A DNA stretch of 64,000 nucleotides, taken from positions 1,633,599 to 1,697,598 of the forward strand of contig MU004190.1 of assembly GCA_010093605.1 (NCBI GenBank), written 5' to 3'. A program made the position numbers and the translations under genes. This DNA is from Lophium mytilinum (taxonomy: Eukaryota). Positions 1,657 to 52,031 of the stretch are shown in pieces. The first letter of the stretch is position 1. Each line of letters begins with the position of its first letter. The notes under the pieces are model-generated. The model was not told where the DNA came from and ran no database searches. It saw only the letters and a program-made list of their open reading frames with translations.

Positions 1657-4012
1657 ATGCCTTCCGACAAAGATCTCTGCATCAATTGCAAAGCAATAAA
1701 CGTCGAGACTTTATCCGCTCCGGGAGGGTTTTGGGTGCGACGAGCAGATCTCCACCGTCAATGCTGCCTCTGCGCTTTCATTGAGAATAAGGTATTTAGA
1801 TTTGATAGAGGAGTGAAAGAGATTGCCCTTCGTTTGAAGTCTCATTTTGATGGGGCGGTCATGTTAGAGATGGGCGGGACCGAGTTCAACATTGGCACGT
1901 TAGAAGGTAAGGTTTCTCACATTTTCAGACCATAGCCATCAATTTGTACACATTCTACACCACTACGTGTGGTACTTGGGGTATTTCTAGATTTTGCAGG
2001 TATCGCCGCTCTCGAATCGTACGTCTTAAGATTCTGCTGTCTAGAGATGGCCTGGCGCGCTGGTTTTTTGTTCATATTGAAGAAGTCCTGTCTCAACTTT
2101 ATCTTCAAAACCTCATCGAGGCACTCAACACCATGGCGGATGTACGTACCGCAGGTGCTGATAAACAAGGTCAGTCACAGTGGAGATGGATATCCACTGC
2201 CATTTAACTTATCAGCTACCTACTGGGCAGGCTCCTCCTCACAGTGGTATTGGGCGTGCAAACGCCTAAACTTTTTACATCCCGTTTGCAATGTTGAAGC
2301 CTATAGATATTTACAGACTCATGGCCTGTAGCGCGGTAGTGTACAATGTCTGTTAGTATGATGGTAGCTTACGAGAAGTAGATGATCCAGCTACCCGCTT
2401 CAAAGTACCTGTCTACAGAAGGCCCACAAATACCAGATCTCCTGAGACATTTGCGATGGCTAAACGCTGGATCCAACAATGCGCCTCGAACCATGATTGT
2501 GACAGGGTTTTCAAAACCAACGTAAACTCCGGAATCCGCCCAAGTCGTCTTATCGACGTTTTGGCATTTGGTCTATCCTGCCTGGACGCCCAGTTGATTG
2601 ACACCAGGAGCCTAAGCCGTTGCCCTCAATACATCACCTTAAGTTATTGCTGGGGACCTCCTTCGTCGCACAGCTATACCACTACTCGCGCGAACTTCGA
2701 AGAGCGGCGAAGGAGGATCAAATACGAGGACCTTCCTCAAACCTTCCGCGATGCTATCACTATCACAAGAGAGATGGGAGAACGGTACCTCTGGGCCGAT
2801 GCAATCTGCATCATTCAACAAGATGAGGACGACTGGGAGGTTGAATCTAAAACAATGGGCTCGATATATGCTAACGCGCTGGTATCAATAGCAGCAGAAG
2901 ACAGCAAAGATAGCCACGGCGGTTGCTTCAGAGATATTACTGGACCAGAAATCCCGGACCTTATAAGATTAGAAAGCGAGGTCAGCTACGGTAAAACTAG
3001 TTGTTTGCTGCTATTCTATGATCACCTAAGCTTTTACACTCGTAACTTAAGCAACATCCCGCTTCGAAAACGTGCATGGGCTATGCAAGAGAGCATCCTG
3101 CCTCGACGAATCCTGCACTACACCGCGTCGCAACTATATTGGGAGTGCCGGAAAGTAGTATTGGCAGAGGATGGTCTACCTCGGTATGACGTGCCGCCAA
3201 ACGCCTTCTTTCTTCGCCTAAGGGCATTCTCCAATGCCTTTACGCCTAGGGACGAGTCAAAACCCATCACCGTGCAATCTTCATTCGTTTTATGGTACAA
3301 ACTCGTTCTTGATGACTACTTTGAAAGATTCCTCACTTTCCCCGAAGACGTGTTACCAGCCATTGCCGGCATTGCTACCTTAATTCACCGGTCACTGCAA
3401 TGCCGCTACATCGCCGGCATCTGGGCTGAGAACATTGGGTACGGATTGAGCTGGAGCATGCCGGTCGGCTTCGCGTCCCTCCCTCAACCGTCAACGTACC
3501 TGGGGCCCTCTTTCTCTTGGGTAGCGCGGTGTGAGCGTAAAAGCTACCCTCGCTACTTCAAATCCCCTGTAAAACTTCAGGAATCTCACGTCAAGCTCAC
3601 CGGCCCCGATCCGTTCGGTCGAATCAACGGCGCGTGGATTAGAGTCAAAGGGCGAATGAAGATTGCTCCGCGATTGCCTGGTACGAAGAGAGGCTCTCTA
3701 CCAAGCGGAGACCGGACTCGCTCGAACAAGTCAATTGTTCGAACCTCCATCGATGGACAGCTTTTGGTGGCTTGTTTTGATGGTGAGCACCCCGCGTCGT
3801 CCATGGAAGAGTGGTGCTACTTCGACCTCGGAGATGAGAAACACCTTATACTTGTACCGAAACGCGACGAAAATCACAATGGCTGGGTACGAGTTGGACT
3901 TGTCGAGCCGTCGGGCGAGTACTTGATTGGTAAGTCAGACGGAGAGATACATACTATCGAAGGGTGGTCATGGGATGATGGGTGGGAAGAGAAGGACATC
4001 ATCATCTATTAA
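1657..4012 (+). CDS. HET-domain (heterokaryon incompatibility-like) protein
   Basis: ORF 2456-4012 has RLIDV, YITLSYCWG, LPQTFRDAI, YLWADAICIIQ, MGSIYANA and RAWAMQE motifs. Probable first exon 1657-1906 (LCINC...CCLC) spliced to ~2382 (DDPA...). Confidence 0.9.
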
Positions 4013-8898: not shown

Positions 8899-11800
8899 TA
8901 TCTTGATAGCAGTGTTGTAAAAGCAAGGCATACGAACCCCATCACCCTTGGTTGAGGTCCTATAGCATGCTGTTAGCCATCTAGATGCGACGGAACGTGC
9001 TTTGCTTAAGCTTACGGCACGTCATATGGCAGAAACGCAACGTGGAGAGGCTGGGTTCGCAAGTCGGCCATTGTAAAGAGGGGATGGTGAGAACAGCGAG
9101 GGCAACAACGACGAGCAATATACACATAACACCGCGGTCCATGCCGAGTGAGGCGCGAAAGATGAAGAAATCAGTTACCTTTAAGCCGCCGGTAGGGACG
9201 CCCACGCCGCATGCAAAGAAGCGCAAGCCCGCGGCGAACGAAGCCTCGAGACGCCGCTCCCGCTCCGAGACCCCACTCGAGGACATTGACGGTGGCTAGC
9301 AGGATTACGTACCCCGGTGATGACTTGCTGAGGCCTATCAGCCCGTACAACATAGTGTCTATAGCGGTAATGGTGATCCTTAAGCCAGATGGAATTACAG
9401 ATTTCTAAGTACAGTGTTGCAAATTGAGGTTTAGCAGACCTGTCAGATATGGCACCGTATGGGGTCCGCCAGGGTATGCTTGATACCTTGTAATTTCAGA
9501 GCGCAGTGGATTACAGATTAGAATCGAGGTTCCAAATCTTCGAATCGCGGTGCGGCTGGAGTAGTCCGTAGAAGTGTTGCCTTCTTCTTATTCCACTTCT
9601 TCTTATTCCTCTTCTTCTTATTCCTCTTCTTCTCAATCCTCTGTTCTTAATTCTCTTCTTCTTGTTTCAACCGTAATATGCTACTTCGCTCTCTTTCCAA
9701 GCAGTCTCCATTCTTCTATCCCTTCTTGTTCTCATTGTAACCCAGTCTTCCACTCGTCCCCTTATCTGTATTTAACCGATGCACATCTCGCATACGTGGA
9801 TCCCTGGGGCTCGTTCGAAGGCAGCTCGGAGGTAGATACTGTACCTGTGGCATAAGTTAGTCTCAAAACACTCATGTCTTTGAAAACAACCCCGAGGGCA
9901 TCTGTAATTCTGGGTTCTGAGCATCGCAGCATGTGGATGATGCATGGCAAATATCAAAACTTCTGAGAGCAGCTTAGCATCTCGATTGTTCGCCGGTGAC
10001 GCCAGCACCCTGTTAGTAGACTGGATGAACGTCCCGCACGTTCAGTGATTATTATCGTGCCCAAAGGCGTTCATTGTCTGTTCGAATCCTCGTCTGAGCC
10101 CGTGTGCTTGTCACAGTTTCACCAAGAGCTTTGAGGGGTCTTGCTGGCGTTGCGGGCCGGATTCCACCAGCAGTTTAGTTCGAAATGGGACGCCGAGTCG
10201 TCTGCCTTGACGAAACTTCAAGTTGCTACCCCTACCTGAGTCTGTCAGTTTCCTGACATGCCACATGCCCAGGCTTGCCAAAGCCAATCTAGAGTGACTC
10301 TAAGCCTCGGTGGGTTGGTATTTGTCCCAGGCCCTTTGCGTCTAGGTGTTTCCTGGCTCGAGCCCCACGGGTTCCATAAGGTTTCCCTATTCCAATGTTC
10401 TTCCTGTTGATGCCTGCCGACTTTCCGCTTCGCCTATGACTTTCCGCCTAGACTTAGGCCGCCTGGCGTTTTCCCACTGACAGGGCGTGTCCGATTGTCT
10501 CCAGGAGTATGTTATGACTTGATCTACTTCGTCGTTGTACCACAGTGACGCGTACCCTCCCCAGTAAGAACAACTGCTGGTCTGATTGAAGGACTAGAAC
10601 GTCTGTCTTGGTCGAGGGCCTTCCGAGGGCTCGTGGCGGAGTTTCAAGGTTCGAAGGTTGTTTGCCTCGCCGTCTGCGTTGGGTGCCTGTCTTAAGGAGA
10701 GAAAGGAGCTACTCCTACCAGGTTGTGCCGGGAAGACTGGTCTGATTCAAAAAAGATGAGTTCCTTGACTTAAAAGACAGTACAAGAGCACCTGTTACCA
10801 CCAGTACCAGTATGTTTCCGACGCTTTCGAGGACGCAATCGCTACGAAAACAAGTCCACACTTGTCTCTTCTTGCTGGCCCGGTCCCTGCTTGTTCTAAA
10901 GTTGTCCTTTCGGGATTCCAGACTGTTGCTTCTTCGAGAAGAACACAGGTATCCGTTTGTATGTGCATCAGGGCGAGGGGTGGCCGAAGGCAGGAGGAGG
11001 GAGGAGGAGGCTGGTATGGGAATGCTAAGGCAATCAGCCGGGGGACTCTATGAAGGCTCGAGAGAACCGAGGCCACAGAGAGTTAGCAGATCTCGAAAGA
11101 GCAGATCCCTTGGATAGTCTTGCCTTCATGATGCCTCCTTGTCGCCTCTGTTGACTGGGCGAAGATGGACAGGGACACAATGTTCCCTGCCCGAGGATGC
11201 AGCCTTACTTAAGGCACGTATTGGTGACCTGCCTATCTGTTTCGCCGCTTGTCTCTGTCTCTCATTGTTGCCACGGGAGCACGGAGGCTCAAGGCCGTAG
11301 CAATGTCTCAAGCAAAGTCACTGGTGGCCTAGGTAGCCCGAGAATGAAGAAAGGGGGTGTTTGCATTATGCTACACTATCTAAAGGCTATATAGTGAACA
11401 CAATGAGGGTGATCTCTCAATGCGTTGATGCTGTGACGCTAACTCGGTTGTGCGTGGCTTGCCCTTTTGTTGTGGTCTTCTGTCGCCTTTGCTTCTCCCT
11501 CATCTTCTCTCCATCCTACCCACCACCATCATCACCAACACCACCAGTACTTGCCTATTCACTGCCTCAAGAGCTTCTAGACCTGTTCCAGATCCTCTGC
11601 AGACCGTCAGCGTAAGTCTTCAGGTGCTCTCTGAAGCATCCTGAGCCCGTGGTGTCACTAGCCGGCGAAAAGTCTTCTCCGCCCCTTCTTCACCTCCCTC
11701 ATCCCCAACACCATCTGAAAACTGCTGCACGCCGTCTCAAAGCTTCTACGAGTCCCACTGACCTTCCACAGATGCGTCTTGCAAGTCTTTCGACGCCGTT

Positions 11801-12345
11801 TGGCCTCGTGTCGGGGTTTGTGGGCGAGGTGGCCTCCATCGCCACCTCCGCTTCGCACTTGACCAGCCCATCACACCCAGCATCGAAACACCACAGCAAG
11901 CAGTGGCTGTAGCATCTTTCGATACCTCCGAGCCTCCACTAACGTGTGCTGTAAGTCTCTCGGCGTGTTAGGGACCTTTCCTGGCTCTGACGTTTGTGGC
12001 TTCGACCGTGGCTTCTCCGCCCCAGACTCATCCACTTCATCACTAACAACCTCCAGCCACCTCCAGGCACACCTCGCTCAGCACTGTTGATCTCCCGGAG
12101 GCCTCGTTGGCAGGCTGTGCCTCCGCTGTAAGTTTGGAGTTTCTTTGACGGCTCTTTGCCTTGGCGACATCTCACTCTTTTTTCATCAACACCATCCATC
12201 AACACCATCAACACAACAAAGGTCGCTTCGTCCTCAGTGCTTCGAGGCTTCAGCGGTGCTCCGAAGCACAAGTTCTCTCTACCCAGTAAGTGTACAGCTC
12301 TTTCATATTTTTTCAACCTCTTCCCATGCCCACCACAACAACACT

Positions 12346-14236
12346 TGGGCTGCGTTCTCGAGGGAGTCGTGCTTCACCCACGTCGACTCCTTAAAAACCA
12401 GCGTAGAGTAACAAACATCGCCCGGAGCTTGTTCAGCGGTCGCTTCTTGCTGGACTGAAGCAATGAGAGCTGGGTAAGAACCGTTCGCCAACAGTCCGGT
12501 GTCGAGCGACGCAGGATGGACCACAGCCGCCCGAGGGAGGACCTGGCGGGCAGGATTCGGCTTGGTAACCCGGGTCCGAGTAAGGTTGTAAACGTCGTGA
12601 TTGCCAGTCGCGGCGTAGGTGTCCTTGCTCGTACATCTCTTGACCCTTCCAGCATTTGTTGTTACCGTTTTGCACATGTCTTTTTGTCCAAGCCTTCGCT
12701 AACTTCATCATCGTAAGGTCCGCTTCCCTCGGCGTCGAAGTTAGGACTGCTTCATGCTATTGCGTCTTAAGAATTGGTACGTTCAAGTCTTTCTTTCAAC
12801 TCTTGTCAGCCACTCTACCCTCCCAGCCCCTCCCATCGTACAGGCAAGGTACGGACACTCGAGCCTGGCTCTTTCATAGCCATGAAGCTCTCATGCCTCT
12901 TGCCGAGATCGAACAAACAAGTCGCCGCCATGGTTCCCTGTCCGATCATAGTTCGCCGCAACGCGGTTATTTAGTGTAGTATTGTGCCCCTCGGGGTTAT
13001 GAGCCGGGGCAGCGGCTGTTCTCTTCAACGGCGGCGACGACTGCGGGATAGTTACCCTGGCATCAGCGCTGCTCCGCATTCGATGGCGCCAGTAGGTGGT
13101 CCTAGTCAAACATCTTTTGCTAATCTTTCTGCAGGCAGATTCCTCCCTTCGACTTCTCGCGGCACCTCCACAACCTGCTTCCTCCTCTCTTACAACCTCT
13201 TTCGAATGCCGAACGCGGTACGATCATTAGCACTACCTTCTTCTTTAGCCTCAAACGGTTTTTGGCATACGAGCGCGGCTCCTTGAGAACATTCCAAGTG
13301 TCTCCTACAAATACCAAGCACCTGTCGTCACTGGACGAGGAAATGAAAGCAACATGGCATAACATAATGGATGTGGAGTATTTGCGAGATTGAAAGTGTC
13401 TTCGACTTGTAGGTCGGCATCAAATCGAGTTCTGGGGTACTCGGAGCTACTGTCAAGATGGATTCGTCGTCCCCTCTCATTTCGCCATCTTTGGGTTTCA
13501 GCATCAGGCAAGAACAGTCGAACGATCTTGGCTTCCTCTTAGCGTGGTTCGAAGATTGCTTTCCAAGAACAAAAAGAAGTCGCCCTCTGGTTCCCGTTCG
13601 CTCGTAGGTCGCTGTCCCTACCTCTGTTGGTGGAGTGTTTGTCTGCAATATTGCGCTGGCGAGGCAGCCCGCGCCTGAAGACAGCTGTAAGAGGGCGACA
13701 GACGCCAAGATAGTCACCCCAGCATCAGCACTGCCTTGCATTTGATGGTGTTGGAAGGCGGTCTTGGCTCGGACATATTTCTTTCGGTTTGGCGATCTCT
13801 TCATCAAATGCACGATTGGTTTCGTGGTTGCTGACAGAAATGCAGACACTAGAGATCTGCTTCCTAGGTAACTGTCATCGGTTCTGTCACAAACCTCATC
13901 ATGGTAAGTTCTTTCCGCTTATTTTTTCCTCTCGTTTTTCCTCGACGATCGCCCTCTTCAATCAGGCACTTCAGCCCACCGAGCCCGACTCTAGTAGCTC
14001 TCGCTCCGGGTATTGTAGGTCAAGATCAAACCAAATCGTCGTGCTCAGCGGGGTGTTGGAAGCAAGTAACCATGGGGCGCAGTCGCGGTCTTGGTCGGTT
14101 ACGCGTACTGGGGCAGAGCAGGGCCTTCCTAGATGGTCACAAGAGCACGTACGAGCGACGGATGAAGGGAGTACCACGGCTTCAGCTGCCTGCTCTGCTA
14201 GAATGGGGTCTGATGGGCGGCCCAACTCGTACATCT
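12346..14236 (+). ncRNA. Array units 1-4 (most diverged; apparently one per intron)
   Basis: Ends gctcgtACAtct (12633), gtcaaACAtct (13110), gctcggACAtat (13773), actcgtACAtct (14231); each followed by a branch point and AG. Confidence 0.55.
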
Positions 14237-15358
14237 TTCTCTTTCTGCGATCTCCTTGGCTCTTTTCGATGGGTTCCAGTCGTCCTTGACTTTTGCTAAC
14301 GATTCTTGCAAAAGCACTCCTTCGGGCTATCGGCCTGGATTGCGACTTCCTCAGCACAATTTCCACCTCCTCTCCCAGTTGTGTAGTCTTGTAAGCCTCT
14401 TTCTCATTTCTCTCTTCCACTCCCTCCCATTTTTCTATTGACGTGAATTCGACTTGCTAACTTTGCCAAAGATAATTGCCATTCGAACCTTGCTCTGTGG
14501 CTGAGATCCTGCATATTGTCAGCGCAACTACTGCAGGTACGTTTTTCAGTCTTCTTCTCCTTCCCATTTCCCACTGTGATGGTCGTCTTTAAACACCGTG
14601 GTTCTGCCGAGGCTTGATGATATATACACATCTTTCTGAGACCCGAATCTCTCCGCTATCTCGATTGCAAGCTTTCGAGTGATCAACTAGCTAACTTCTC
14701 ATCAGCAGTGACGACCAGGTAAATATAGGGATGCCCTCAATCCACTACAAGTACGTTCTCCGATCTCTTTTGCTCTTTCCCAACATCCGGAAATGATGAT
14801 TTTGTATATTGAAATTTCTCATGCTGAGGCCTGATGACACACACTACTTTCTGAGACCGGACTTGTCGCTCATTTTCATTTGCTGCTCTTTGAATGAAGA
14901 TCCCGCTAACTCTTGAAAAAACCAGGAATCATCATTCCTTGTGAGGTGGCTGTGGGCCAATTCTTCTTTACCTCTGCACTGTTTCACCCATCGTGACGGT
15001 GGGCAGAGTCTCGGAGGGACTCAAGTCTACCGCAGGTACGTTTATTGACCGTTTTGCTTTCTTCATTCTCCCATTCTCCCATCCTCCAACTATGATGATT
15101 CTTCGAGGCTGTTGCTGAAACATGATGATTCTCGATTCTCTGAACCTGCGATTCTGCGACCTACTTTTCCAGACAATCTTTGCGCGGTCTTGGGCTAATG
15201 CGTGAGAAGTTAGGGATCTTGACATTCGACATCTTTGAAATGTGTGCGCTTTCGCTCTTTTGTCGACTGCATTTAAATGGTACATGGCATATCCTCTCCG
15301 ATGGCACCTTCTCCACCCATTCCACTCCATCCGATATCTCCGGTGCTCTCCAGAAAAC

Positions 15359-16162
15359 GGCATCGCACCGTCGATCGTGGTCGGCTTCTCCATAGCCTTC
15401 TACAGGCCAGGGTGCCGGAGATCAACGAAAGGCTGCGTAGGTAGTAGAAGAGGACCGGTCGCGAGATTCGTTTCTCAGCAGAGCCCGTCGGACCTGCGCG
15501 CGGTCGTGACGCTGGAGCAATACCTTCATTCAGGGTTTAAAACTAAGGATGATCATGCACCCTCCCATGGATGAATCGAGAAGATTTACCCTGCCGGTGG
15601 CTCCAAGCTCATACATCTCCCTTTTTTTTGTCAAGATTTCTCTCATTTCGCCCACTTCGATTGGCGTCTCTTCGAACATTGACAGACAATGACACTAACC
15701 ACACAATAGTACGTCTTTACCGACAGTGCTCTCCGGGAATCTTCGAAAAGCTGAATGTGAACATCGAGGATGAGGATTATGGTATCAATATCGACCTCTT
15801 GGCCCTCTGAATCCGCTTTGCTTCTCTTCTTCTCCCTTTCCGATAAATCATTCCTTCCTCCTCTGACCACTAGGCCGCATTTGCAGGCACGCCCGTATCA
15901 CACCGAAGCAGCTTCCTCATAGCCTTCTTCACGTGGGGCGTGCCGAGATCAAATTTGTCGCATGCAGTGGCGACGGGTCGACTACTCGAATGATTGGGAC
16001 AGCAGGCCATGACGAGGTTCGTAAGGAGCCCTGAGCCCTGCATGTTGACGTGACGCTGGGGCTTACTACGTCTCCCCTGCTGCTGTGGAGATCTGGAATG
16101 GCAAAAGAGAAGATGTTGCAAACCGCCACCAGTATTAGTTGGTCGCCTCAGCTCATACATAT
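15359..16162 (+). ncRNA. Array units 5-6
   Basis: Basal stems ggcatc/ggtgcc and ggcacgccc/gggcgtgcc, each followed by AGATCA (canonical ANANNA). Both end gctcatACA. Confidence 0.65.
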
Positions 16163-16323
16163 TTTCAAGGTTGGTTACTCTTCTTAGTGCTTTGATCCAA
16201 GCTTATCTTCCCTTCTTCTTTCTTTTCTTCTTCTTTTTGTTTCCTAGAGTATACGCCCAAGAATCAATCTTTTCCCGTTTCTTTCTCTTCTTGGGCAGTT
16301 GAATTCCCTCATTGAGATGCTCA

Positions 16324-17298
16324 GACACCGCCTTTACTCCGAACCCAGCTTCCTCCTCATAGCTCCGTTCCAGTAAACGGTGCCAAGATGGAGCTAGTCG
16401 CTCACAGTGGCACGCGGTCGACGATGGCATCGGAGCGGGAAGTAGGCCTAGGGTGTTTTGTCTGTCGGCCCCGAGACTTAGAGCTTCGTAAGAGCCTTCC
16501 ATGCCCTGTGAGTCGACGTGACGCCAGATGCTACCGCACCTTCCCTACTCTTCGTGGAGGCCTACCTGTTTCAGTTCACTTCACGGTAAGACGGGCTTCT
16601 GGCTCATACATCCTTTCGCGTGTTTTCCTCTTTCTTCTCATGTCTCTTCTAGAGGTGATGTGCTCAGACACCGCCGCACTCCCGAACCCAGCTTCCTCAT
16701 AGCTCCGTTCAAGTGGGCGGTGCCAAGATGGAGCTAGTCATTCGCAGCGGCGCAGGGTCGATGATGGTCTCGGAGCGGGAGGTAGGCCTAGGGGTTTGCC
16801 TAGCGACCCTAAGACTCAGAGCTTCGTAAGAGCCCCAGTGGCCCTGTGAGTTGACGTGACGCCAGATGATACCACACCTTCCCTACTCGCTGTGGAGGCG
16901 TGAGCGAGTAAACGTCACAATTAAGCAACTGGTATTCTGGCTCATACATCTTTCCGCCTCTCTCTCTCTTTCTCTCTCTCTTTTTCTTCTCATGTGACTT
17001 CCAGTGGTCATGTGCTCGGCACCGCCTCACTCCCGAACCCAGCTTTTCATAGCTCCGTTCAGATGCGCGGCGCCAAAATTGATCTAGTCGCTTGCAGTGG
17101 CACGGGATCGACGATGGCATCAGAGCGGGAAGTAGGCCTAGGGAGTTCTGAAAGTCGCCCGAGACTTAGAGCTTCGTATGGAATTCCAGTTGCCCTGTGA
17201 GTTGACGTGACGCCAGAAGCTACCACACCTTCCCTGCTCTTTGTGGAGGCGTGAGCAATGTTTACCCACCGGCAAGTGGTATTCTGGCTCATACATAC
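16324..17298 (+). ncRNA. Array subfamily A (3 close paralogues, ~345-bp period)
   Basis: Near-identical ccgaacccagct..tcatagctccgttc and gacgtgacgccaga...ttctggctcatACA blocks. Confidence 0.7.
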
Positions 17299-17765
17299 TA
17301 CAACACCGATTCGATCTTGGAGAGAACCCGTTTTCGGATCTGCCGTTGGTGAGTTTGTGGGGTTTTCTTGGACGAGCGGGCCTGACTTCGTATCTAGGTC
17401 GTATCAACATCACACGAATGTCTGATGTTGGGTGATAGCTGCGTGTTTCTCGTTCATGTTCTCTTTCTTACGCCGTTCTTGCTCGGCAAGACATCTCGTT
17501 CACAGCTTGACGTATTCGGCAGTCAGGCGTGGTCGACGCTACTTCCTCATAGCCGCGGCGTGGGCAATCCTCAGACTCTTGGTACCACCGTGCAGAATCC
17601 CTGGCCTTGTGGGTAACCTAGATGCTCACATTCCGTCGCCCCGAGAACGACTGGAAAGGCCAGCAGCTGGACTCGGAGAACAACGCTGGACTGATGAGTA
17701 AGTTTTCCAAACTCTTCCTTTCCATCCCCTTCATTCTTTTCACGCCCTAAATCGTCTCAAACCCC

Positions 17766-18236
17766 GGCACCGCCATCTCTATACGCCGACTACCCAATAG
17801 TCGTGCGCCGGCTGGCGGTGCCAAGAGGAAAACCATCGGCCTGCGTTGTACTTGACCATTGCCGCAGTGGCTGCGTTCTCTTGACGCGCAAGACCATGAC
17901 GCTGGCCTAACCCAACTCCCCTGCACCGCAAGGCCCAGCTCAAACATCTTTCTTCCTGTGGGCTTTCCATTGCTTCATCCTGAAAGTTTGACGGAGAGAC
18001 TGACTCAAAAGCAAATCCAGATTCTTGAATGTTTCTATTTTTCTGGAATCCTGGCACCGCCGTCTCTATGCGCCGACTTCCTCATAGTCGTGTGCCGGCT
18101 GGTGGTGCCAAGAGCGAAACCATCGGCCTGCGTTGTACTTGACAATTGCCGCAGTGGCTGCGATCTCTTGACGCGCAGGACCGTGACGCTGGCCTAACCC
18201 AACTCCCCTGCACCGCAAGGCCCAGCTCAAACATAT
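17766..18236 (+). ncRNA. Array subfamily D (2 short ~184-nt paralogues)
   Basis: Highly similar pair 287 bp apart; both end aggcccagctcaaACA. Confidence 0.7.
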
Positions 18237-18443
18237 CGACTCTCTAGGAATTTTCACTGCTTAAGTATAAGAGCAGGCAGAGAGACAAACTTAATACTAG
18301 GTCCTGATGAAAAGGCGATTGAAGGTCCTCTCAAAGTCTCACACAGCTAAGCAAGTTTTCTCTTCTTCAGCTCCACAGCTCCACAGCCCACTCAACTTCT
18401 CGACATCCGGTTCTGCGCGTCAAGACGAACTCTTCCAACATCC

Positions 18444-20774
18444 GGCCCCATTCTCTTCATCCGAGCCGGCTTCTTCATAGTCGTGCTTTCGATAGCGGGG
18501 CGAAGAGTGAACTGTATCGTGGTTGATGTCCGACGTGTTTCTGGCTGGCGTCTGAGACATCTTCCCGTGCAGGTCTACCGACGCTGAGCACTACCTCGAC
18601 TCCGACTAGATGGAGAATGGAGCTGACGCACTTGTGGCAGCGGTCAAATGGACGCTCAGCTCAGACATCTTTACTACCCACCCTTGTTTACATCTTCGAA
18701 ACGACGGAATAGCGAAGCTGACAGTTGTTGTAGGTTTTAGGACGCAAAACCAAGTGTTCAGGTCTTGGAGCAGATCTTCGAGAGCTAGCTCTGAGGGGAG
18801 CGCAGCATGGAGTCCCATTTGATGTAAGCTTTCCTGCATCTTGTCTTTCTCCTTCGTCAAGAACCACCCCATGTCGGCACCGCTCCCTCCCTCCGAGTCG
18901 ACTTCCTCGTAGTCGCATGCTCTCGGGAAGCGGTGCCAAAACTGATTTCCGACCTGCGTTGTGGAGCGGGCCACCGCCATGCGGTTCTCAAGAGCCTTTT
19001 ATCCCTCGTGGTGTCTATGACGCTGGTGCAATACCCGACTCCGGATGTAATCAATGGAGAATCGGACTTGAGTTAAAGTGTATTATGGACGCCCAGCTCA
19101 CACATCTCTCTTTTCTAGGCATAGCTGCTTCTTCAGGGCTCAGGGATAGAAGTCGGGAGGCTGACAAGGTGAGTAGGCTCTGGTAATTCGTTGCAGCCCG
19201 AAAGCAGTGTAAGTCTTCCTCCGTCTCTTCCAATTCCTCGGCGTGGCTATCTTTCCATTTCCTCTTCAAAATCCAATCTTCACGTCCCTCGGCACCGCTT
19301 CCTCACAGCCGTTTTACTCATAGCCGTGTTCGCTCGGAGCGGAGCCAAGATTGAGAAGCTTCTCGCGTTGTGGCGGAGGGTCGCCTCGCAGAAGAAACTT
19401 GCGTGGAGCCGGAACCCTCTTGGCCCTCGCAGCGAACTTGACGCTGGTGCATGAACCCGACTCCAGAGATGATCCATGAAGTATCGGAATCTTATCTTAC
19501 GGCCTCCAACGATGGACGCCCAGCTCAGACATCTTCCATCAATCCTCGCCCTTTGCGAAAAGAGTGATGAGCTCAAGCTGACGAGGAGAAGAGGTTCCGA
19601 GGTTCCGATGAGCGTGTGATGAGAGATAGGATACTCCGCTGGTCGGCAACGATGCTCTTGCAAAGACACAGGTGAGCCGAATTTCTTGCGCATCTTCAAA
19701 CGCATCTTCTACCCAACCGCACCTTTTTTTTCCAACGCTTCCGGCACTGCCAATATTCCGAGCCAGCTTCCACATAGCTATGCTCTCAATGGCAGCGCCA
19801 AGATTGATATTGTCATCGTGTGTGGCGGAGAGCTCCACTAGCTAGCTACTAGTTGGAGGCTCTCTTACCCCTCACGATGATGTGACGCTGAGGCAAGTTC
19901 CACGACTCCGATAGCACGACCAATGGTCGAGAACTGCACTAGCTATCATATCAATGGAGGATCGTGATATTGATGCGCATGGCCCCCTGGACGCCCAGAC
20001 TCATACATATTCTACCGGTGCAACTTTCAGACTGAAGCTGACGACTCGAGCAGAAACCTCACGCGCAAAGTAACTATTCCCATCTCTTTTCTTACTCTCA
20101 ACCACTCTCCTTCGACCTTAGGCACTGTCAACATTCTGAGCCAGCTTCCTCATAGCTATGCTCTCAATGGCAGTGCCAAGATCAATGTTATCATCGTGTG
20201 TGGCGGAGAGCTCCACTAGCTACTAGCTGGAGGCTCTCTTACCCCTCACGATGATGTGACGCTGAGGCAAGTTCCGCGACTCCGATAGCATCGACCTTGG
20301 TCGAAGAGTGGCTAGCTATCATCAAATGGAGGATCGGGAAAGAAGATTTGCATACCATGGACGCCCAGACTCATACATATTCCGCCAGTGCAACCTTTTA
20401 CGTTGAAGCTGACGAATGAAGCAGAACTCCATTGCGCACCGTAGCAATGCTCCCAAAGTATGTATCCCCTTCTCTTTTCGTTCTCTTCCAGCCTCTTTTC
20501 TGAGCCTTTCGGCACTGTCAACATCCGAGCCAGCTTCCTCGTAGCTATGCTCTCAATGACGGTGCCAAGATCAAAAGATATTACACGCGTGTGGCGGAGG
20601 AGCTCCACTAGGTGGAAACCGTCTTAGCCCTCGCGGTGATGTGACGCTGAGGCAAGTACCCCGACTCCGATAGCAGAGACCCTGTCCGAAATGAAACAAC
20701 AAATAGCTATCAAATGGAGGATCGGGCGACCCAAGGAGGTCAGGATTTTCATGGACGCCCAGACTCATACATAT
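18444..20774 (+). ncRNA. Array subfamilies E/C (6 paralogues)
   Basis: Ends ggacgcycag(a)ctca(t/g/c)ACA. The last three share ggcactgYcaa...gagccagcttcc..tagctatgctctcaatg..gYgccaagat. Confidence 0.7.
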
Positions 20775-21447
20775 CCCATCAATGCAACTGCTTTTGCAGA
20801 TCATAAAGACAACGTTGGAGCTGACGAATCGAGCAGAAATCCAGATGCTGAAGACAGTGGCAGTTCGGGGAGCGTTTCGCCTTCTTCGCTTCTCCTGAAA
20901 GGTTTTTGTTCTCTCCGGAATACCCGTTCGGCGCGCTCCACACCGCCGATGCGGCGTTCTTGTCACGGCTCAGATGCCATGAAAAGGATACGAGTGGACT
21001 CTTCAGCCTACATTGAGGCGTCCATTGAGCTAATGAGTATGTTTCAACTCGACGAATAGGTTGCGAATGGGTGCTGACTTTTCGTACTCTGTATTTAGAG
21101 AGACGGTATCTGGAGCCAAGAAGGAAGGTAGGTGCAGGTGCGCGATGAGAAGTTGCTTGCCGGTTTGGACGCTTGCTGATCTGAAAGCGTAGGAAGCAAT
21201 CAGTAGCACTGTCAACAAACATTTTCATGCCCCCAGTCACTGCGATCCAGCTCGGCATTCCAGGCTCTTTCAAGACTCTTTTTCTGTCTCAAATACCTTT
21301 TGTCCTGGAGCTTAGTCGATTTTCGTCGATGGCTCGTCTTTCCACTCGAATTTCACCACCGCGGTACCCTAGCACCATCGTGGCACCGTTCAATGACCTC
21401 AATCTACTCATGGCAATATCTACCATGATCAAGCTACTGGTTCCAAC

Positions 21448-23892
21448 GGCACGCGCAGCCGAGAATGTCGGCTCCGGCAATGGCAGCTTCGACTTGTGCA
21501 CGCCAAGATTGATAACATCGTTCTCGCTAGTGGGTCGCCTCTCTCGGGAGGTGGGCGTCTCTCGAGAGGAAGGTTGGATTAAACATAAAATCGATGTCAC
21601 GCGCCCCCGTTCGAGGGCCACCTCATGCACGGGGGTGTAAAACGCAGCCGTAATCGGAAAAAAGCGAGACCGAGCGGGATTTGAAGTTACCACGTCTTCA
21701 GCACTGCATCGGCTTGATGGAGACGGTGAAGGTATTCTGACCCGTACATATTCTTTCGGTCGCAAGCTGCATAGCCAGCCTAGTCTGGAGCTTCGAGACC
21801 AGATCACGAAGGGGCTGTATGAAGTAGATGAAGAAAGAGCTGGAGGATCAAAAGTTCTGGTGAGTGTTGGTTTCAGCCTCCCCGTCATGGATTCCCTCCA
21901 AATCGGACCACGGCACGCGCTAGTCGAGTATGTCTGCTCCGGCCATGGCATTCTGGACTTTTTTCCGGCGCACGCCAAGATGGATGATTCGTTCTCGCTG
22001 ATGGGTAGTTCGTTAATGGGCTGTTGGATTTGAGTTCAGTAAAAGTTTTACCCAATTGCCCAGTGCAGTGGTACCTCCGTAATCGGATGTCGTCAGAACT
22101 CAACGAGCAAGACTCGGGTGACAAGCGAGGACGAGCGGGATTTGAAGTTACCACGTCTTTAGCACTGCATCTGCTTGATGGAGATGGTGAAGGTGTTCTG
22201 ACCCGTACATGCCCTGTCGATCACAGGCTGCCTGGCCTAGCGCTAGAGCTTCGAGGCCAGAGACCGGATTGCTAACGAGGCGTCAAGCTAGATGAGAAAG
22301 AGCTGGAAGATCAGAGGTGCCGGCATTACCTTGGCCTTCGAGTCGAACCTCACGACACGCGCCGGTCGGGTACGTCTGCTTCGGCCGTGGCGTCCTCGAC
22401 CGTTTCCGCGCACGCCAAGATCGAGAATTCGCCCTCGTCGGTGGGCAGTTGGATTTGAGTTATGCAGGCAGCGAAGCGACCGAGACCCGAAGGTCCAGTG
22501 CAGTGGTATTTCCGTAATCGGAAGTTGTCAAAACTCAACGAGCATGCCTCGTCTCAGACAACAAGCGAGGGCGAGCTGGATTTGAAGTTACCACGGACTC
22601 AGCGCTGCACAGCCATCAATGGAGCCGGTGAACGTATTCTGACCCGTATATATCACCCTATTCTCTCGGCCACGGAGTCTTGGGCCTAGCGCCGATGCTT
22701 CGAGGCTGAACTACTAATTTCCACAGATGCGCCGGCAGAAGGAGTCGCGGGAGGAGAATGGCGATCGACACGAAACCAGGCACGCGCTAGTCGAGTGTGT
22801 CTGCTACGGCAGTGGCATCCTCAATTCGCAAGCCAAGATTGATAGGTCGCCCTCGCTGGTGGGATATTGGATTTGAGTGGGAGTGGATTAATTGCGATGG
22901 AGTCACCCAGTGCAGTGGGTAGATCAACCGTAATCGGAAGTTGTCAATTACCCCACGAGCATGGCGAGACTCGGACAACAAGCGAGGGCGAACGGGATTT
23001 GAAGTTACCACGGATCCAGCGCTGCACAGCCTTCAATGGAGCCGGTGAAGGTGTTCTGACCCGTACATACTTCTTTTCGACCTCGAAGTCACCAGCTAGG
23101 CAACGGCGCCTCGGGGTTGAGCTACTAACCCCTTACAGATACGGTCAACCAGAGGCATAACCGCGGCACGCGATATTTGACTTGTCTGCTTCGGCGGTGG
23201 CATACTCAACATACGCACGCCAAGATTGATAGTTCGTTCTCGCTGGTGGGCTGTTCGTTCTCGCTGGTGGGCTGTTGGACGCGGCAAGACTCAACACGGG
23301 GAAGCACCCCAGTGCAGTGGGAGACGAACCGTAACCGGAAGTCGGTTTCGGTAACGACAACGCGAGGACGAGCGGGATTTGAAGTTACCACGTACTCAGC
23401 ACTGCAACGCATGATGGGGACGGTGGAGGTGTTCTGACCCGTACATCTCTCGCTACGGAAATGCCGGGCCTGGTGTTGGCCCTTCGATGCTAGCTTGCTA
23501 ATCATTCGCGCCTACGCGACGGTGGATTTCAGACCTGCGATTCTCCGCTCAGGCTGGTATTAGTCTCACGGCACGCACCGATTGAGTATGCGGCTCCGGC
23601 GATGGCATCCTCGATTTGCACAAGGCGCACGCCAAGATCGATCATTTTTCTCTGCTAGTGGGCTCCGGGGGGTGAGTTCCAGCGGGTTAGCATAAGGGAG
23701 TCGGCAGTTCCACACAGACCACTGGACACCCAGTGCAGGGGGATAAGATCCGTAATCGGAAGTCGTGCGGAACTCGGTGGGTTGATGGCTTTTTTGACGA
23801 CGAAGGCGGAGACGAGCGGGATTTGAAGTTACCACGGATTCAGCGCTGCACCGCGTAATGGAGCCGGTGAAGGTTTCCTGACCCGAACATGT
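21448..23892 (+). ncRNA. Array subfamily B (6 paralogues, ~390-460-bp period)
   Basis: Shared gcgggatttgaagttaccacg...cagcRctgca...ggtgaaggtRttctgacccgtACA (ATA in one copy). Confidence 0.7.
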
Positions 23893-24768
23893 TCTATCGC
23901 GTTGAATGCGATGGTGTTGATGCTGAGGGACGTTGGAGGTTAGGATAAGGTTGGAGTTGAGTATGTTAGCGTTTACCGTTCCGAATTCCTTTTGCTGGTT
24001 AGATCAATGCTTACGTACTGACGTCCCAGCTTCAAGGGGCGTCTTAGATCCTTGACTACCTCCCCACGACCTATGCTAGAGTAGATTTGATTCTGGGTAT
24101 TTATCGAATAGATCTGTCAACCTTGTCAGCTTCCCCGTCCAAATGTTATGCGCAACTTTCGGTCCGCTTTCGCTCTGCCCGATATTATGACGCCCACCAA
24201 TCATAGATCTAAAGAACGTTGTATGTCCTTTGAAAGGTGGCGGGCTTCATCGGGGGTCCCTCCAATGGCGTGGTATTGCGCGCTTGATGCTGGGCTATGG
24301 CCCATTGTCATCCAATCCCGCGGAGGTTTGCGGTCCAAAGGTGTGTCAATTATCCTGCTCCTCGCTGATCCACAGATTCCCGTTCCGTATTTTCCCCTCT
24401 CCCTCCCTCGATGGCATGCTTCACGCAGTCATCCAGTCAGTCAATAGTCTAGGTAATTCGGTCTGATTTGAAGCGGTTATCCAAAGAAACTCCCTCTTCG
24501 GCCCTCCCCTCGTTCGATCAGCATGCTCCAAACCACACCAAACTCTTTACAGCTTTTCCCGACCCTCATAGAGCTGGAGATTATATCAGCTTTGCAACAC
24601 AAAGGGCACTTCGCTGAAGCATACTGTTCCATATCCGATATCCTCCAATGATCAACCGCACGCGCGCAGAGTCAGACACACCAAGGTAGCTCGCAGCCCT
24701 GGACTTCCGCGCAAGAACGTCGCTAGGCTCGGCTGATATAGAAACTACCACGATGTAGTAGGATTCGC

Positions 24769-35604: not shown

Positions 35605-38600
35605 TCATTCCGCCTTCCGCCCCTCCACCTCCTGCGGCATATCCTTACTCCCCTTAATCTTCCTCGTATTCTTCGGCACCCGCACCACCCAATACAACGC
35701 AATCGCCGCAAAAACATTAAAAACAATAAACACCCACATAATCCCGAAATCCCTCCACCTGGTACTATACTTCGACGACACCTGCGCAAGATACTGGTTC
35801 GTGCTCGTAATCGCGCAAAACCCGCAATCCGTCGTCGCATTCGGATCCTCCAGCTTCCCACCGAAGCTCGCCATGTACGTCTCCATGTACTTGCCGCACG
35901 TCTGCCCCACGGCGGGCTGGAACCGCGCGAGCTCGATCGCGGAGCACTGCACGGTGGTGTTTGCAAGCCCTGTGGACATCATGGCCGAGATGAGGTACGT
36001 GAAAGGGGACACGCGGTACATGAAGATCCAGAAGCCGGGGAGCTGCTGCGGGGTCGCGAGCACGCCGCAGAACATTAGCGTGAGGGAGAAGAGGAGCGTG
36101 GAGAGGGTGCCGGCGGCTTCGACCATTTCCATGCCGGCGATCATCATGTGCGTGAAGGTGGATGTGAAGAGGAGGAAGGTGAGGATGAGGAGGAACATGA
36201 GGAAGCCGCGCTCGTGGACGGCGTTGGTGGGTTCGGCGTTTTTGTACATTCCGATTGGGTAGTACCAGCAGAAGAACATGATGACGGCCATCAGGGCGTT
36301 CCAGGGGAGTTCGACGAATATGTTGGAGAGGATGAAGGTCTGCCAGGAGTAGGTCTTGGATGGGCGCTCGCGCACTTCGTAGAGGGCGCGCTGGGTGACG
36401 AATTGCGGCATGATTTGCTGGTTGAGGTTGCCGAAGACGATCATGAGCATGAAGATGGAGAACATTTGGTTTTGGAGGCCTTGCATAGAGGTCTTTTCGT
36501 TCCAGAAGGAAAAGCCGATGAAGAGGGCCTAGGGGGTGGCTCAGTAAGTTTTTCTTGGTGGAATAGAGGTGGGTCAAGACTTACAGGTAAGGTGCAGAGT
36601 ACGACTTTTGACCATAGGTAGGACGGGGTTCTCCAGTACTGCTCAAAGCAACGTCGCGTCACCAAAAGGCTCTGGTAACCGAAAGACTGGGCGAACGTTT
36701 GGTGCGCATCGGCCGACGACTGATCGATTTGAGACGTCTTGGGTAGGTCCACGACCATCTGATCTAGTTGCCGCCGGATTTCTCGCCGCTCTTCACTTTC
36801 GCGCCATAGCTGGGGCCAATCTTGGTCGCTCTTGGAGCCTGGGGCTGCGCCAATTACTTCTAACATATACCTGAAGACATCGGTGGTCAGTAAATCGAGG
36901 TCCCAAAATCGCGGTGGGAAGAAACTTCACTTACTCGGCAGGATTAGCCTCCGGTGGACACTTGAGGTCGCTCCTCCGTTCGAAATAATCGATCAGCGTC
37001 TGTGAGTTGTCCCCAATGTCTCCGAAGTACACCGTTCGTCCTCCCTTCGCCAGCAGCAATAGCCGATCGAAGCTTTGAAACAAGACCGCCGACGGCTGGT
37101 GAATTGTGCATAGAATCGCTTGGCCATTTTCAGCGAGTTTGCGAAGCAAGGCGCAGATAGACCACGCAGTCTGACTATCGAGGCCGGAAGTGGGTTCATC
37201 GAGGAAAAGAAGGAGCTGCGGCTTTGCTGCGAGTTCGACACCGATGGTGAGCCTTTTACGCTGTTCCACGTTGAGCCCTGTGGGCCCAAGTCAGCGAAGA
37301 TCAAGATCATGTCGTACAAGAAAGCCCGTACCTTCACCAGGAACGCCGACGACAGCGTCAGAGTACTCTTGCATTTCGAGGAGTTTGATCACCTGATCAA
37401 CATAGTCGAGCTTCTCCTGCTTGCTAACGTGTTGAGGTTGTCGCAAAAGAGCGCTGAAATTCAGAGCTTCTCTAACCGTAGAGGTTTGGAGGTGTAGATC
37501 TTGCTGCTGAACATAACCTGTTTTGCGCTGGAACGACTCGTCGCGGAGATGCCCGTCGACGAGCATGTCTCCAGATACTACACCCATCGTCACTCGGCTG
37601 GCCAACGTATCAAGAAGCGTCGTTTTGCCAGCGCCAGAAGCTCCCTAACATCCTATTAGCCCCGAAACCGCATCACAGGTGTAGATATTGACTTACCATG
37701 AGTGCAGTCAAAGTACCCGGCTTCACCCAGCCATCCACGTGATCCAGTAGTCGTCTAGGCTGGCCCTTGATTTTGATGTCATAAACCAAGTCTTTCCAAT
37801 GGAAAACAGCTGTCTGTTTCTGTATCACGATCTCTTCCGAATCGCCCGCGTCTGTGATTGCAGCCGCAACGTTATCAGCGCCCGAAGCCGCACCGCTCTC
37901 CTCATCGTCTTGCGTTATCATAGACGTCGGGATATGTCCGCGTTTGAAGACAAGGATCTCCCCCTTTGATCGCTCGGCAGAGACGTATTCGGTTCCGAAC
38001 AAGTACGTGGCGAAAAAGAATAGGAAGAATGCAATAAGAATGCCGAGGTTTCTAGTGTGAGGGTCAGAAATTTGCGCTTGAATTGACCGTTGAAGAAGAA
38101 AGTGAATACCTCCAAAGATGTGCTTCTTCGTACTTAAATGCTGTCTTCAGGTAGTCATTGCCCTCTACGAATTCGGCTCCTACTTGCTTCCCAACTGCGG
38201 TGCAAGTCCTATGTACGCCAGTAGCATTTTCGTATCCTGGCCCTGCAGGGACATATGTCAAGCAAGGGAACTGGCGGTTGCGGAATTCGTTGATCATCAG
38301 ACTTTCGAAGGCATAGCCGATCGGGCTAGTAGCAACGTTAGCAAAAGACGTTACAGTGAAGTGGGGGTATAGGCCTACTCTATGTAGTTTATCCAGCGAA
38401 ACCAAGGATGCATCCCCGAAATAGGAATAGCGAACCCCGTATAGATCGTCAACGCGAGAATTGCAAAAGAAGCTGGCACCATAGCCTGTGAGAGGGTTCG
38501 CGTGAAGGAAGCGATGGTCCTGAAAATGTTTGACATGGTAAGTGTCATGATGAACGAAAAGATGAAGAATGTGAAGAAGGCCCCAACTTCGCGGCGGAGG

Positions 38601-48012: not shown

Positions 48013-49246
48013 TTAGTGCGTTGAACTTCTAACAGGAATCTTACACAACACACTTAGCTCTGCATAGCGTACGATGAACACTACTGAATGACTAGGTATG
48101 TGACGCAGTTTCACCAATGCTTCGCGACCTTCAATCCGAGCAGAGGCCCGTTTCCAATAGTAGCTTAACGAGAACCGTTCTCTCCAATCTCTTGCGCGTA
48201 GCAGTGAAGTTCTGCCCCAGTTGTCTTTGGCGTTGATATCTATATCTGTTTTACCATAATTTAGCAGAAGTTTGACAGTAGCTAAGCGTCCTCTTTCGGC
48301 GGCCCGAAATAGCGGCGTCTGATTTTGATGGTCCCGGCAGTCAAGATGAACTTTCCCTGTGTCCAACAAGACTTGGATGACAGGTGTGTGCCCTCTCTCG
48401 GCTGCGTATGACAGTGGTGTCCGGCCGAAACCGTTATCGGAATTGATGTCAACCTTTCCCGTTCCTATCAGTAGTCTAACCACAGATACTTGGCCAGATT
48501 CCGAGGCTAAGAAATGCGGTGTTTGGCCAACACTGTTCTTGGAGTCGAGTCTAACGCCGCCTCTCTCGAGTAATAGTCTCATCACTGAGTCAGACCCATG
48601 GACAGCTGGCCATTCAAGTACTGCTTGTCCGCTCCCCGTATCATTATCCCATCGAATCAAATCAAGCGCCCCGGCTGATATTAGTCGAACTGCCACGGGA
48701 ACCCCTTCTTTTAACGTCGTGTACATCATCGGTGTCCGTCCAGTATTATCCTTTGCGTGAACGTCCGCTTTGCCCATTTGCAATAGTAGATCAACCACAG
48801 CAGCGTGCCCATATTGGATTGCCCAATGCAGCGGCGTCTTGCCACGCTCGTCCGCTGCATTGACATCGAACTTGCCTGTTGCGAGTAAGAGCTCAACAAT
48901 GGCTTCGTTCCCGCCGCGAGCAGCGAAAGGTCACTATCCCGGGTGTTGTTCATTTCTAGAATCAACATTGACCTTGCCATTTGCCAAAAGTAGCTTAAGG
49001 ACTTCTGTACTCCCCTTTTCAATAGCGCAAGACAGCGGTGTCTGGTTGGTTATGTCCTTTGCGTGAACATCAGCCTTGCCGGTTGCCAGAAGTAGCTCAA
49101 CGACGAGTATGTGCCCTCCCCTGACAGCAGCTAGCAGCGGCGTCTGGCGCGAATGATCCTTTGAGTCGACAGCAATCTTTCTAGTGGCAAGCAACAGCTG
49201 AACTACGCCGTCGTGCCCTTTTTCAGCTGCCCGCAATAGAGGCGAT
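48013..49246 (-). pseudogene. Ankyrin-repeat protein, 3' remnant with frameshifts, truncated by the TE block
   Basis: Repeated TPL..AA..GH..VV.LLL.TGK.D motifs over three frames; upstream sequence is replaced by the AT-rich block at ~49247. Confidence 0.85.
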
Positions 49247-49899
49247 CAGGGCTACCCTTTAATCACTGAATTGCCCCGTTAATTAATAGTGATTAAAGGC
49301 TTAGCAGGTATTAATAATTAATTAAGTCTTTAAAAAAGTTTTAATTACTTAATATAAAGAGGCCTAATTAATTACTAATTAATATCTATTAAAGTTAGAT
49401 TTAGTATTTAGATTTAGTATTATAGTCTAGCTTAAAAGTCTATAATTCTAGGCCTTTTATTAGTCTATCTATATTATAAGCTAACTAACTAGCCTATAAC
49501 TATATACTTACTATACTTTATATACTTACTATAATCTATATACTTACTATAATCTATATACTCTCTATTTTCTATAGCCTTTCTATTTTACTTAGCTATA
49601 TAATTAGTAAAATATAGAGTTTTTATAATAGCTTTTAATATAATAGTACTACTACTACTATTCTTATTACTATTACTATTACCTCTATATTTATTACTAC
49701 TATTTTTATTATTATTATATCTTCTACTATATATAGTTATTATACTTAATATTTTTAGTACTATAATATATACCGCGCTAATTCTCTAGCTTTTTCTCTA
49801 GCTACTACTACTACTAATAAATATAATATTCTACTCTATTCTAACTACCCTTCTATAGAGGTACTAAGAAAATATAATATAATTAAGCTTATAGTATCT

Positions 49900-51400: not shown

Positions 51401-52031
51401 AAAGTAGTAGAAAGACCTTTATTAAATACCTAGATTAATATAGACCTAAAATAGCCCTCTATTAATAGTATACTATATACTATCTATAGTTTTTTATAGC
51501 CTTTTTATTTAATATAGCCTTTTATATAGACCTTAATTTAGTTCTTCTATTTTATAGATTAGTCTATCTATTCTATAGCTTAGCTTTTACCGCCCTTACT
51601 ATTTATATAGGCTACTTAAACTATAGTATATAGAGATATTAATAGACTATTATAGTTTATATAGTAGGGCCTTATATAGGTACCCTTCTTCTAGAAGAAT
51701 AATATTAACTACTAGCTATATAAGAAAGTAAAATAGGCTAGTATAGATATAAATATAGATTTTATAGACCTTAATTAATAATAGAATAACCTAATAAACT
51801 TACTATTATATAGTATAATATTAATAAAAGCTATAATACTTAGAAGAAGTTTCTTAAAAAGGTAGAGATTATCTAGCTCTAGCTACTAGTACTAGCTATA
51901 TAAAAACTATAGAAAAATATCTAAAAGTATACTATACTATATATAAAATTATATTATCTACTATATAGAGAAAGCCTAAATACTAAAATATATATATATA
52001 TATTAATAAGTGCCTAGACTTAGGCTAGTAG

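Follow-up and report, generated by a model that had tools for sequence, protein, structure and literature searches.

The window analysed here is a stretch of 64,000 nucleotides (nt) from the fungus Lophium mytilinum (assembly GCA_010093605.1, contig MU004190.1, positions 1,633,599 to 1,697,598 of the forward strand). Between about 11.4 and 24.0 kilobases (kb) it contains what we read as a UHG-like, non-coding host gene for small nucleolar RNAs (snoRNAs). An earlier note on this DNA had described a hairpin that recurs in this region, and whose stems change in a compensatory manner around a conserved loop. We think that this hairpin is probably the 5′ one, next to the H box, in snoRNA-like RNAs of the box H/ACA type. 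These RNAs would make up a lineage-specific family whose members are lined up in tandem within introns of a single non-coding host. There are 16 copies of what we call family A and six diverged copies (family C), and all of them align from end to end.

The forward (+) strand of the host region is rich in splice signals. Matches to the 5′ splice site (GTRHGT) number 28 on the + strand and 11 on the reverse (−) strand, and for the branch site (CTRAC) the numbers are 34 and 13. In nine of the 16 family A units a branch site and a 3′ splice site are found within 4–76 nt downstream, and five units have a 5′ splice-site match 53–82 nt upstream. For the unit at 12843, for example, the 5′ splice-site match lies 66 nt upstream and the branch site 4 nt past the end. 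The longest frame from stop to stop on the + strand of the host region has 191 amino acids and no Pfam match. Three consecutive introns hold box C/D snoRNA candidates (Table 1); the best Rfam match among these is SNORD52 with 24 bits, which is below the cut-off. There are two further observations on the layout of the region. Between 15886 and 17298 (+) four consecutive units follow each other with no recognisable splice-site or branch-site match in between, so that either there are several RNAs per intron or these units are released by another route. A stretch at about 12300–12640 (+) ends in CTCGTACATCT like other units, and may be a further H/ACA-like RNA of different sequence.

Each unit is about 180–290 nt long. 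The 5′ hairpin is followed by a single-stranded hinge of the form A-R-A-N-N-N-A, a variable middle hairpin, a 3′ hairpin and ACA. It is because of this plan of hairpin, hinge, hairpin and tail that we read the units as box H/ACA type. The A-R-A of the hinge is present in all 16 copies. The basal stem of the 3′ hairpin, GUGA(C)GCUGG/CCAGCUCAU, directly abuts the ACA; one subfamily switches to GCCAG/CUGGC. All 13 units examined have ACA after the 3′ stem. The predicted ends of the RNA can be read from recent duplicates, where similarity starts at GGCAC and stops about 3 nt past the ACA. The RNA bodies of these duplicates are 71–93% identical. Most of their 50-nt flanks are 30–56% identical (two are higher), and shuffled flanks reach 44%. 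In the pair 17766 and 18053 the body is 93% and the flanks are 30–42% identical.

Table 1. Features of the host region, in window coordinates. Model, match to the covariance model of the 5′ hairpin; z, z-score of the single-sequence fold.
Feature	Position	Strand	Basis
Host gene for snoRNAs, presumed non-coding, multi-intron	11430–24030 (ends approximate)	+	Excess of splice signals, no long open reading frame
Diverged family A copy, loop CUUUCAU	12843–13115 (5′ hairpin and hinge 12843–12912)	+	Model 23.4 bits, E 0.001
Family A copy, decayed basal stem (6/9 pairs)	13507–13778	+	Hand parse; model 13.5 bits
Family A copy, decayed basal stem (5/9 pairs), loop CUAGU	13965–14236	+	Hand parse; model 13.4 bits
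Three box C/D snoRNA candidates in consecutive introns	about 14575–14655, 14786–14861, 15085–15147	+	C, D′, C′ and D boxes, terminal stems
Family A unit	15359–15618 (hairpin 15359–15425)	+	Model 20.2 bits, slightly different register
Family A unit	15886–16162 (hairpin and hinge 15886–15952)	+	Hand parse and model; z = −3.9
Family A unit, subfamily starting GACAC, 3-nt loop insertion	16324–16613	+	Hand parse and model
Family A unit starting GACAC, A·C mismatch at basal pair 2	16667–16951	+	Hand parse and model; z = −5.0
Family A unit, loop UUUCAU	17018–17298	+	Hand parse and model
Short unit (about 115 nt), exact 11-mer apex, ACA-like tail, no basal stem; probably a decayed or truncated copy	17519–17633	+	11-nt model match only
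Short family A unit (184 nt), loop ACCCAAU	17766–17949	+	Hand parse and model
Short family A unit (184 nt), consensus loop	18053–18236	+	Hand parse and model; z = −4.7
Family A unit	18444–18670	+	Hand parse and model
Family A unit, loop UCCUCGU	18876–19107	+	Hand parse and model
Family A unit with duplicated apex motif	19291–19534	+	Hand parse and model
Family A unit	19743–20010	+	Hand parse and model
Family A unit, best model match	20121–20380	+	Hand parse and model (84.4 bits); z = −4.5
Family A unit	20511–20774 (hairpin end 20574)	+	Hand parse and model
Family C, six diverged homologous units	21448–23892 (starts 21448, 21914, 22355, 22779, 23165, 23570)	+	Full-length alignment

We parsed the 5′ hairpin of the 16 copies by hand into homologous segments; the stem register used below is that of this parse of homologous columns. 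A basal stem of nine columns (P1) is followed by a 5′ internal-loop strand of 4–10 nt, a stem of 4 base pairs (bp; P2), a small bulge, another 4-bp stem (P3) and an apical loop of 5–10 nt. On the return side there is a 3′ internal-loop strand of 4–6 nt. In total the parsed hairpins measure 56–62 nt, and a length of 55–70 nt is given for H/ACA hairpins (PMC5207380; this and the other papers cited by number are drawn on in part). All the pairings on which the earlier note had based its claim are indeed found in the sequence: the five basal stems at 12843, 15886, 18053, 18876 and 20121, the upper-stem variants gaac/gttc, gagc/gctc and gcgc/gtgc, and the apical stems agct/agct and cgact/agtcg. For a further helix, closing the two internal-loop strands against each other, strands from the same copy form on average 2.88 contiguous bp and strands from different copies 2.58 (p about 0.03); we did not adopt it.

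The compensatory changes exceed what chance or shared ancestry produces. A covariance model was seeded with eight copies and run against the whole window on both strands. It found 14 hairpins at E ≤ 0.0065, six of them outside the seed, all on the + strand and spread from 12843 to 20574. In the 14-copy alignment, which was fitted to the model and therefore somewhat favours structure, standard pairs fill 92.8% of 237 cells, and both partners have changed in 12 of 17 pairs. Shuffled columns yield 79.9 ± 1.2% paired cells and 5.4 ± 1.4 double-change pairs, and not one of 500 shuffles reaches the observed values. When the partner column is slid, only 26–47% of the cells are paired, with at most four double-change pairs. 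RNAalifold, unaided, predicts the same three helices. Since the copies are paralogues with a common ancestry, we also used a tree-aware null that simulates this ancestry: columns evolve independently on a tree inferred from the remainder of each RNA. Here, 73.1 ± 3.2% of the cells are paired, there are 5.0 ± 1.6 double-change pairs, and none of 1000 runs reaches what is observed. The earlier note had named covariation no greater than phylogenetic expectation as the result that would speak against it. Because the covariation beats the tree-aware null, its claim of compensatory changes in the 5′ hairpin holds. Among close paralogues the stems differ at 20 of 238 positions, the apical loop at 19 of 55 and the internal loop at 32 of 91.

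The 11-mer CTTCCTCATAG, wherever it occurs on the + strand, sits at the tip of such a hairpin. With at most one mismatch it occurs at 12 sites on the + strand, from 13532 to 20544 (five exact, seven with one mismatch); 11 of the sites lie between 15912 and 20544, mostly about 290–470 bases apart. The unit at 19291 has two apex-like motifs, resulting from a local tandem duplication of about 15 nt at 19296–19325. The loop UCCUCAU had been called nearly fixed. This was too strong, as only four of the 16 parsed copies have it exactly, and we keep it as a consensus. Across 14 aligned copies the identity of the apical loop is 0.74 versus 0.38 and 0.33 for the two strands of the internal loop. Among close paralogues, the loop diverges at the same rate as the internal loop and far faster than the stems. 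Each subfamily with compensated stems nevertheless has at least one copy with the exact 7-nt loop (15886, 16667, 18053, 20121).

What is truly constant is the end of the loop. Its last base is U and the closing pair is U-A in all 16 copies, and the C-G pair below is kept in 15, the remaining copy having U·G. The first and the penultimate loop base could form U-A in ten copies and U·G in two. The last U lies 25–28 nt above the hinge box in all 16 copies, and 10–11 nt above the internal loop in 14. Ketele, Kiss and Jady (2016, PMC5207380) place the Nhp2 docking loops of H/ACA hairpins 24–28 nt above the box, and report that U is favoured as the last base of such a loop. Most likely, the apex is a docking site for Nhp2, and this predicted docking would be the reason why the terminal U and the closing pairs are kept. 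The longer UCCUC consensus is not accounted for in this way. The earlier note had proposed that the loop is a signal for protein binding or base pairing. The former is plausible because it fits the Nhp2 ruler; the latter finds no support, as the stand-in fungal ribosomal RNA (rRNA), which comprised 18S, 5.8S and two thirds of 28S, contains no complement to the apex longer than a 7-mer, which is chance level.

Below the upper stem, the spacing to the hinge box is 15 nt in 13 of the 16 copies and 16 nt in the other three, again according to the hand parse. A study of Neurospora crassa gives 14–16 nt for the distance from pocket to box (PMC2780460), and elsewhere the target U is placed 13–15 nt from the box (PMC5207380).

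The six family C units share the hinge CCAAGAUNGA and the ACA tail. Only the unit at 22355 deviates, with AUA at 22648–22650. Their apex is a C(UNCG)G tetraloop (UCCG in three units, UUCG in two and UACG in one), and their single-sequence folds are no better than shuffles (z about −0.3 to −0.4). Most of them have a tandem A·C/C·A mismatch in the basal stem. A scan of metagenomes for the pattern of basal stem, apex and hinge returned seven loci, none of which has the hairpin or a second copy. We read these loci as chance matches, because they lack the hairpin, five are rich in G+C (0.57–0.72) and three contain the same stretch. We also compared positions 11000–24500 with a sequencing run (X1), whose kind is guessed and which is silent on expression, RNA ends and strand. 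The comparison yielded six perfect pieces of low depth and a few pieces of related copies. Contigs of X1 with a depth of 28–194 match only the conserved parts, from the apex onward (about 18070) and at the 3′ motif (about 23356–23406). The flanks of these contigs differ from the window, and two of them begin with GGCACCG. There may be further family members elsewhere in the organism of X1.

Several observations weigh against an assignment to the H/ACA class. A perfect ANANNA box is present in only seven of the 16 copies, and in the other nine the final A is displaced by one position. The hinge is separated from the 3′ hairpin by an additional hairpin. In our hand reading, a pocket at the canonical distance is missing from the 3′ hairpin, since its upper stem ends about 20 nt from the ACA in family C and about 36–38 nt in long family A units (overall about 20–38 nt). 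A guide-competent 3′ hairpin is not required of every H/ACA RNA. The constant spacing of 15 nt could partly stem from recent common descent without insertions and deletions. The 7-nt loop is dispensable in some relatives, because the diverged family C has a tetraloop apex instead. The pairing of the hairpin itself does not tell the strand. Rfam returned no match in the whole window at gathering thresholds, and at E ≤ 10 there was no H/ACA family in region 12000–22000, only weak C/D and chance matches.

The last point that weighs against our reading concerns rRNA targets. As stand-ins for the rRNAs of the organism we used eukaryotic ribosomal DNA (rDNA) contigs from prokaryote assemblies, which cover 18S, 5.8S and positions 1–2289 of the 3401 in the large-subunit (LSU) model. 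At least 60 contigs in bacterial assemblies carry a conserved eukaryotic LSU motif and look like contamination; the 12 longest, when scanned with Rfam, are eukaryotic rDNA (18S, internal transcribed spacer, 5.8S and 28S). On stand-in 18S, 5.8S and 28S (1 to about 2289), none of the 16 pockets does better than its own shuffles (the proportion of shuffles at least as good is 0.24–1.0). As a control we searched the same rRNAs with the C/D guides of the host. Their longest complement is 9 nt, also chance level, and therefore the stand-in rRNAs are not validated. The stand-in 28S contains the target motif of N. crassa ACA2 (position 1875).

These data allow us to weigh other explanations. One could argue that the functional hairpin is on the − strand, either as an antisense RNA or as a DNA-level element. 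The earlier note was right to leave the orientation of the hairpin unsettled. There are 12 G·U cells on the + strand and 10 A·C cells that become G·U on the − strand, the mean fold energy is slightly better on the − strand (by 2.1 kcal/mol), and the conserved tandem mismatch in the basal stem of family C would be G·U/U·G there. Yet the − strand has no box at the matching positions. We assign the RNA to the + strand because that is the strand with the splice signals, the C/D boxes, the hinge box, the ACA box and the boundaries of conservation; a − strand function appears extremely improbable. One could also argue that the array consists mostly of decaying duplicates without a function of their own, and that their bodies resemble each other through gene conversion and not through selection. 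Decay is visible in the units at 13507, 13965, 17519 and 19291, and loops and pockets drift among close copies. Gene conversion, however, does not yield compensatory changes, so the 12 of 17 pairs in which both partners have changed without loss of pairing, more than under the tree-aware null, speak against it. So does the contrast between stems (20/238) and pocket (32/91), and so does the fact that the conservation boundaries coincide with the predicted ends of the RNA. We regard general decay as very unlikely.

Two more specific alternatives accept the H/ACA-type RNA and differ in what the copies do. The copies might be ordinary guides for rRNA pseudouridylation, each internal loop selecting a different uridine, in which case the array would be a large part of the H/ACA guide set. 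Position and size of the pocket fit (8 + 5 nt, 15–16 nt from the box), pockets as short as 5 + 4 bp were accepted in N. crassa (PMC2780460), and targets might lie in the last third of 28S, in small nuclear RNAs or in the organism’s own rRNA. Against this stand the failure of all 16 pockets on the stand-in rRNAs (a weak argument, given that the C/D guides also reached no more than 9 nt), pocket strands that diverge as fast as the flanks among close paralogues (32/91), and the observation that fungal snoRNA families usually have a single member per genome, at least in the part of PMC5824354 that we draw on. A role as rRNA guides therefore seems unlikely to us. No more likely is the idea that the longer apex consensus CUUCCUCAUAG serves this family as a signal of its own, in addition to the docking of core proteins, for example a site for a dedicated protein, like the CAB box, or an antisense element. 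This idea would account for the loop that is retained in the subfamilies despite compensated stems and for its higher identity compared to the internal-loop strands. It could also draw on N. crassa ACA2, which by eye has CUUCCUC in the apical loop of a 5′ hairpin that likewise starts with GGCACC and ends in the hinge GUGCCGAGAGGAA (PMC2780460). Single copies nevertheless deviate freely (19 of 55 positions among close paralogues), family C has a UNCG tetraloop in place of the apex, no loop contains UGAG and the longest rRNA complement is at chance level.

For a family of H/ACA-type RNAs we propose the following mechanism, which we infer from established H/ACA biology. The host transcript would be spliced, and Cbf5, Nop10 and Nhp2 would load co-transcriptionally onto the hairpin-AGA and hairpin-ACA modules. 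Exonucleases would then trim the intron to the particle, leaving an RNA that extends from GGCAC to about 3 nt past the ACA. In this particle the 9-bp basal stem P1 and the AGA hinge box would form the platform for Cbf5, and the apex would present its last U to Nhp2, 25–28 nt above the box. The upper stems would hold the fixed helix length that the particle requires; under our proposal this requirement is the cause of the compensatory changes in these stems. The internal loop of 8 + 5 nt, which evolves almost freely, would occupy the position of the pseudouridylation pocket. If so, the copies are either guides with differing substrates or orphan RNAs. We lean towards orphan or non-rRNA roles rather than rRNA guiding.

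Judged by its sequence, the object is thus a known kind, an H/ACA-type snoRNA-like family, in an unusual tandem and diversifying form. At least 22 such RNAs in one host have stems under clear structural selection, and the would-be guide loop is free to change. The array would hence be a natural experiment on the origin of new guide specificities or of snoRNA functions that do not depend on guiding. For the rules of H/ACA assembly, such as a fixed helix length, the U at the end of the loop and the distance to the hinge box, the copies also amount to a set of natural mutants that is already at hand. Should the copies prove redundant or unexpressed, the gain would be modest. One can go further and speculate that the array is the fungal counterpart of mammalian orphan snoRNA arrays. 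It would then produce diversifying H/ACA particles whose hypervariable pockets are selected for changing non-ribosomal substrates (messenger RNAs, transposon transcripts or other non-coding transcripts), and whose extended apex consensus a lineage-specific factor recognises in addition to Nhp2. As a whole, we think that this scenario is quite unlikely to be correct.

Elsewhere in the window there is an AT-rich block at 49000–64000 (GC content 0.23–0.30), a frame with a HET domain at 2357–4012 (+) and a fragment of a PDR-type ABC transporter at 35605–36528 (−), all of which are commonly seen in genomes of filamentous ascomycetes.

How does the array compare with known systems? In N. crassa, 20 H/ACA snoRNAs (ACA1–ACA20) have been described; 16 of them are intergenic, two are intronic and none is clustered, according to the part of Liu et al. 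(2009, PMC2780460) used here. Those that have been validated carry hinges of the AGA type, with ACAUUU, ACAUAU or ACAUCU at the end of the RNA. The units described here resemble them in the succession of hairpin, AGA-type hinge, hairpin and ACA plus 3 nt, with an internal loop 15–16 nt above the box. Sizes are similar as well (136–309 nt in N. crassa, 184–290 nt here), and in N. crassa, too, some are encoded in introns. Unlike in N. crassa, a single host holds a tandem series of at least 22 homologous copies. The units also have no Rfam match, contain an additional internal hairpin and lack the canonical geometry of the pocket in the 3′ hairpin. The resemblance to ACA2 was seen by eye only and is a lead. 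It does not place the units in the ACA2/snR82 family: the ACA2 pocket is absent from all hairpins of the window, and there is no Rfam match to snR82 (12000–22000, E ≤ 10). In the supplements of the same paper that we searched, motifs of the window gave only a chance match in the probe table.

The host gene has parallels as well. UHG-like snoRNA hosts of fungi carry C/D clusters, numbered I–V in PMC2780460 and I–III in PMC3596301. Like these hosts, as far as the cited parts describe them, the host region here appears to be spliced, is poor in open reading frames, has mostly one snoRNA per intron and also contains C/D candidates. The fungal clusters described there consist of three to seven different, anciently conserved C/D snoRNAs, whereas here a recently amplified H/ACA-type family occupies about 12.6 kb.

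For the apex, the nearest relatives are two loop motifs of H/ACA RNAs. The BIO motif, in the part of PMC5207380 considered, is found in the 3′ hairpin of human H/ACA RNAs and has a U·G wobble and two closing C-G pairs. Our apex shares with it and with the Nhp2 loop the distance from the box, the final unpaired U, the conserved closing pairs and a pairing of the first with the penultimate base. It is not a BIO motif as described there: it lies in the 5′ hairpin, it is closed by U-A and C-G, its first and penultimate bases are mostly U-A and rarely U·G, and the UCCUC consensus has no counterpart. The CAB box, an apical-loop motif of H/ACA Cajal-body RNAs, binds a dedicated protein (PMC2172171; the consensus ugAG is quoted in PMC5207380, both in the parts drawn on). 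As in the CAB box, a short conserved motif is located in the apical loop of an H/ACA-type hairpin. The loops, UCCUCAU and variants, do not place our RNAs among the Cajal-body RNAs with a CAB box, as none has UGAG, and in contrast to the CAB box part of the invariant UAG belongs to the closing stem.

Tandem H/ACA arrays in fungi were not found in the open-access literature that we searched, and a tandem family of more than 20 copies is unusual for a fungus. The arrangement itself is familiar from mammals. At the imprinted SNORD115 and SNORD116 loci there are dozens of paralogous C/D-box snoRNAs, one per intron of a non-coding host. To our knowledge these are orphan arrays without clear rRNA targets. 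The array in L. mytilinum is like them in having tandem paralogues within a non-coding host, and differs in that its RNAs appear to be of the H/ACA type and are found in a fungus.

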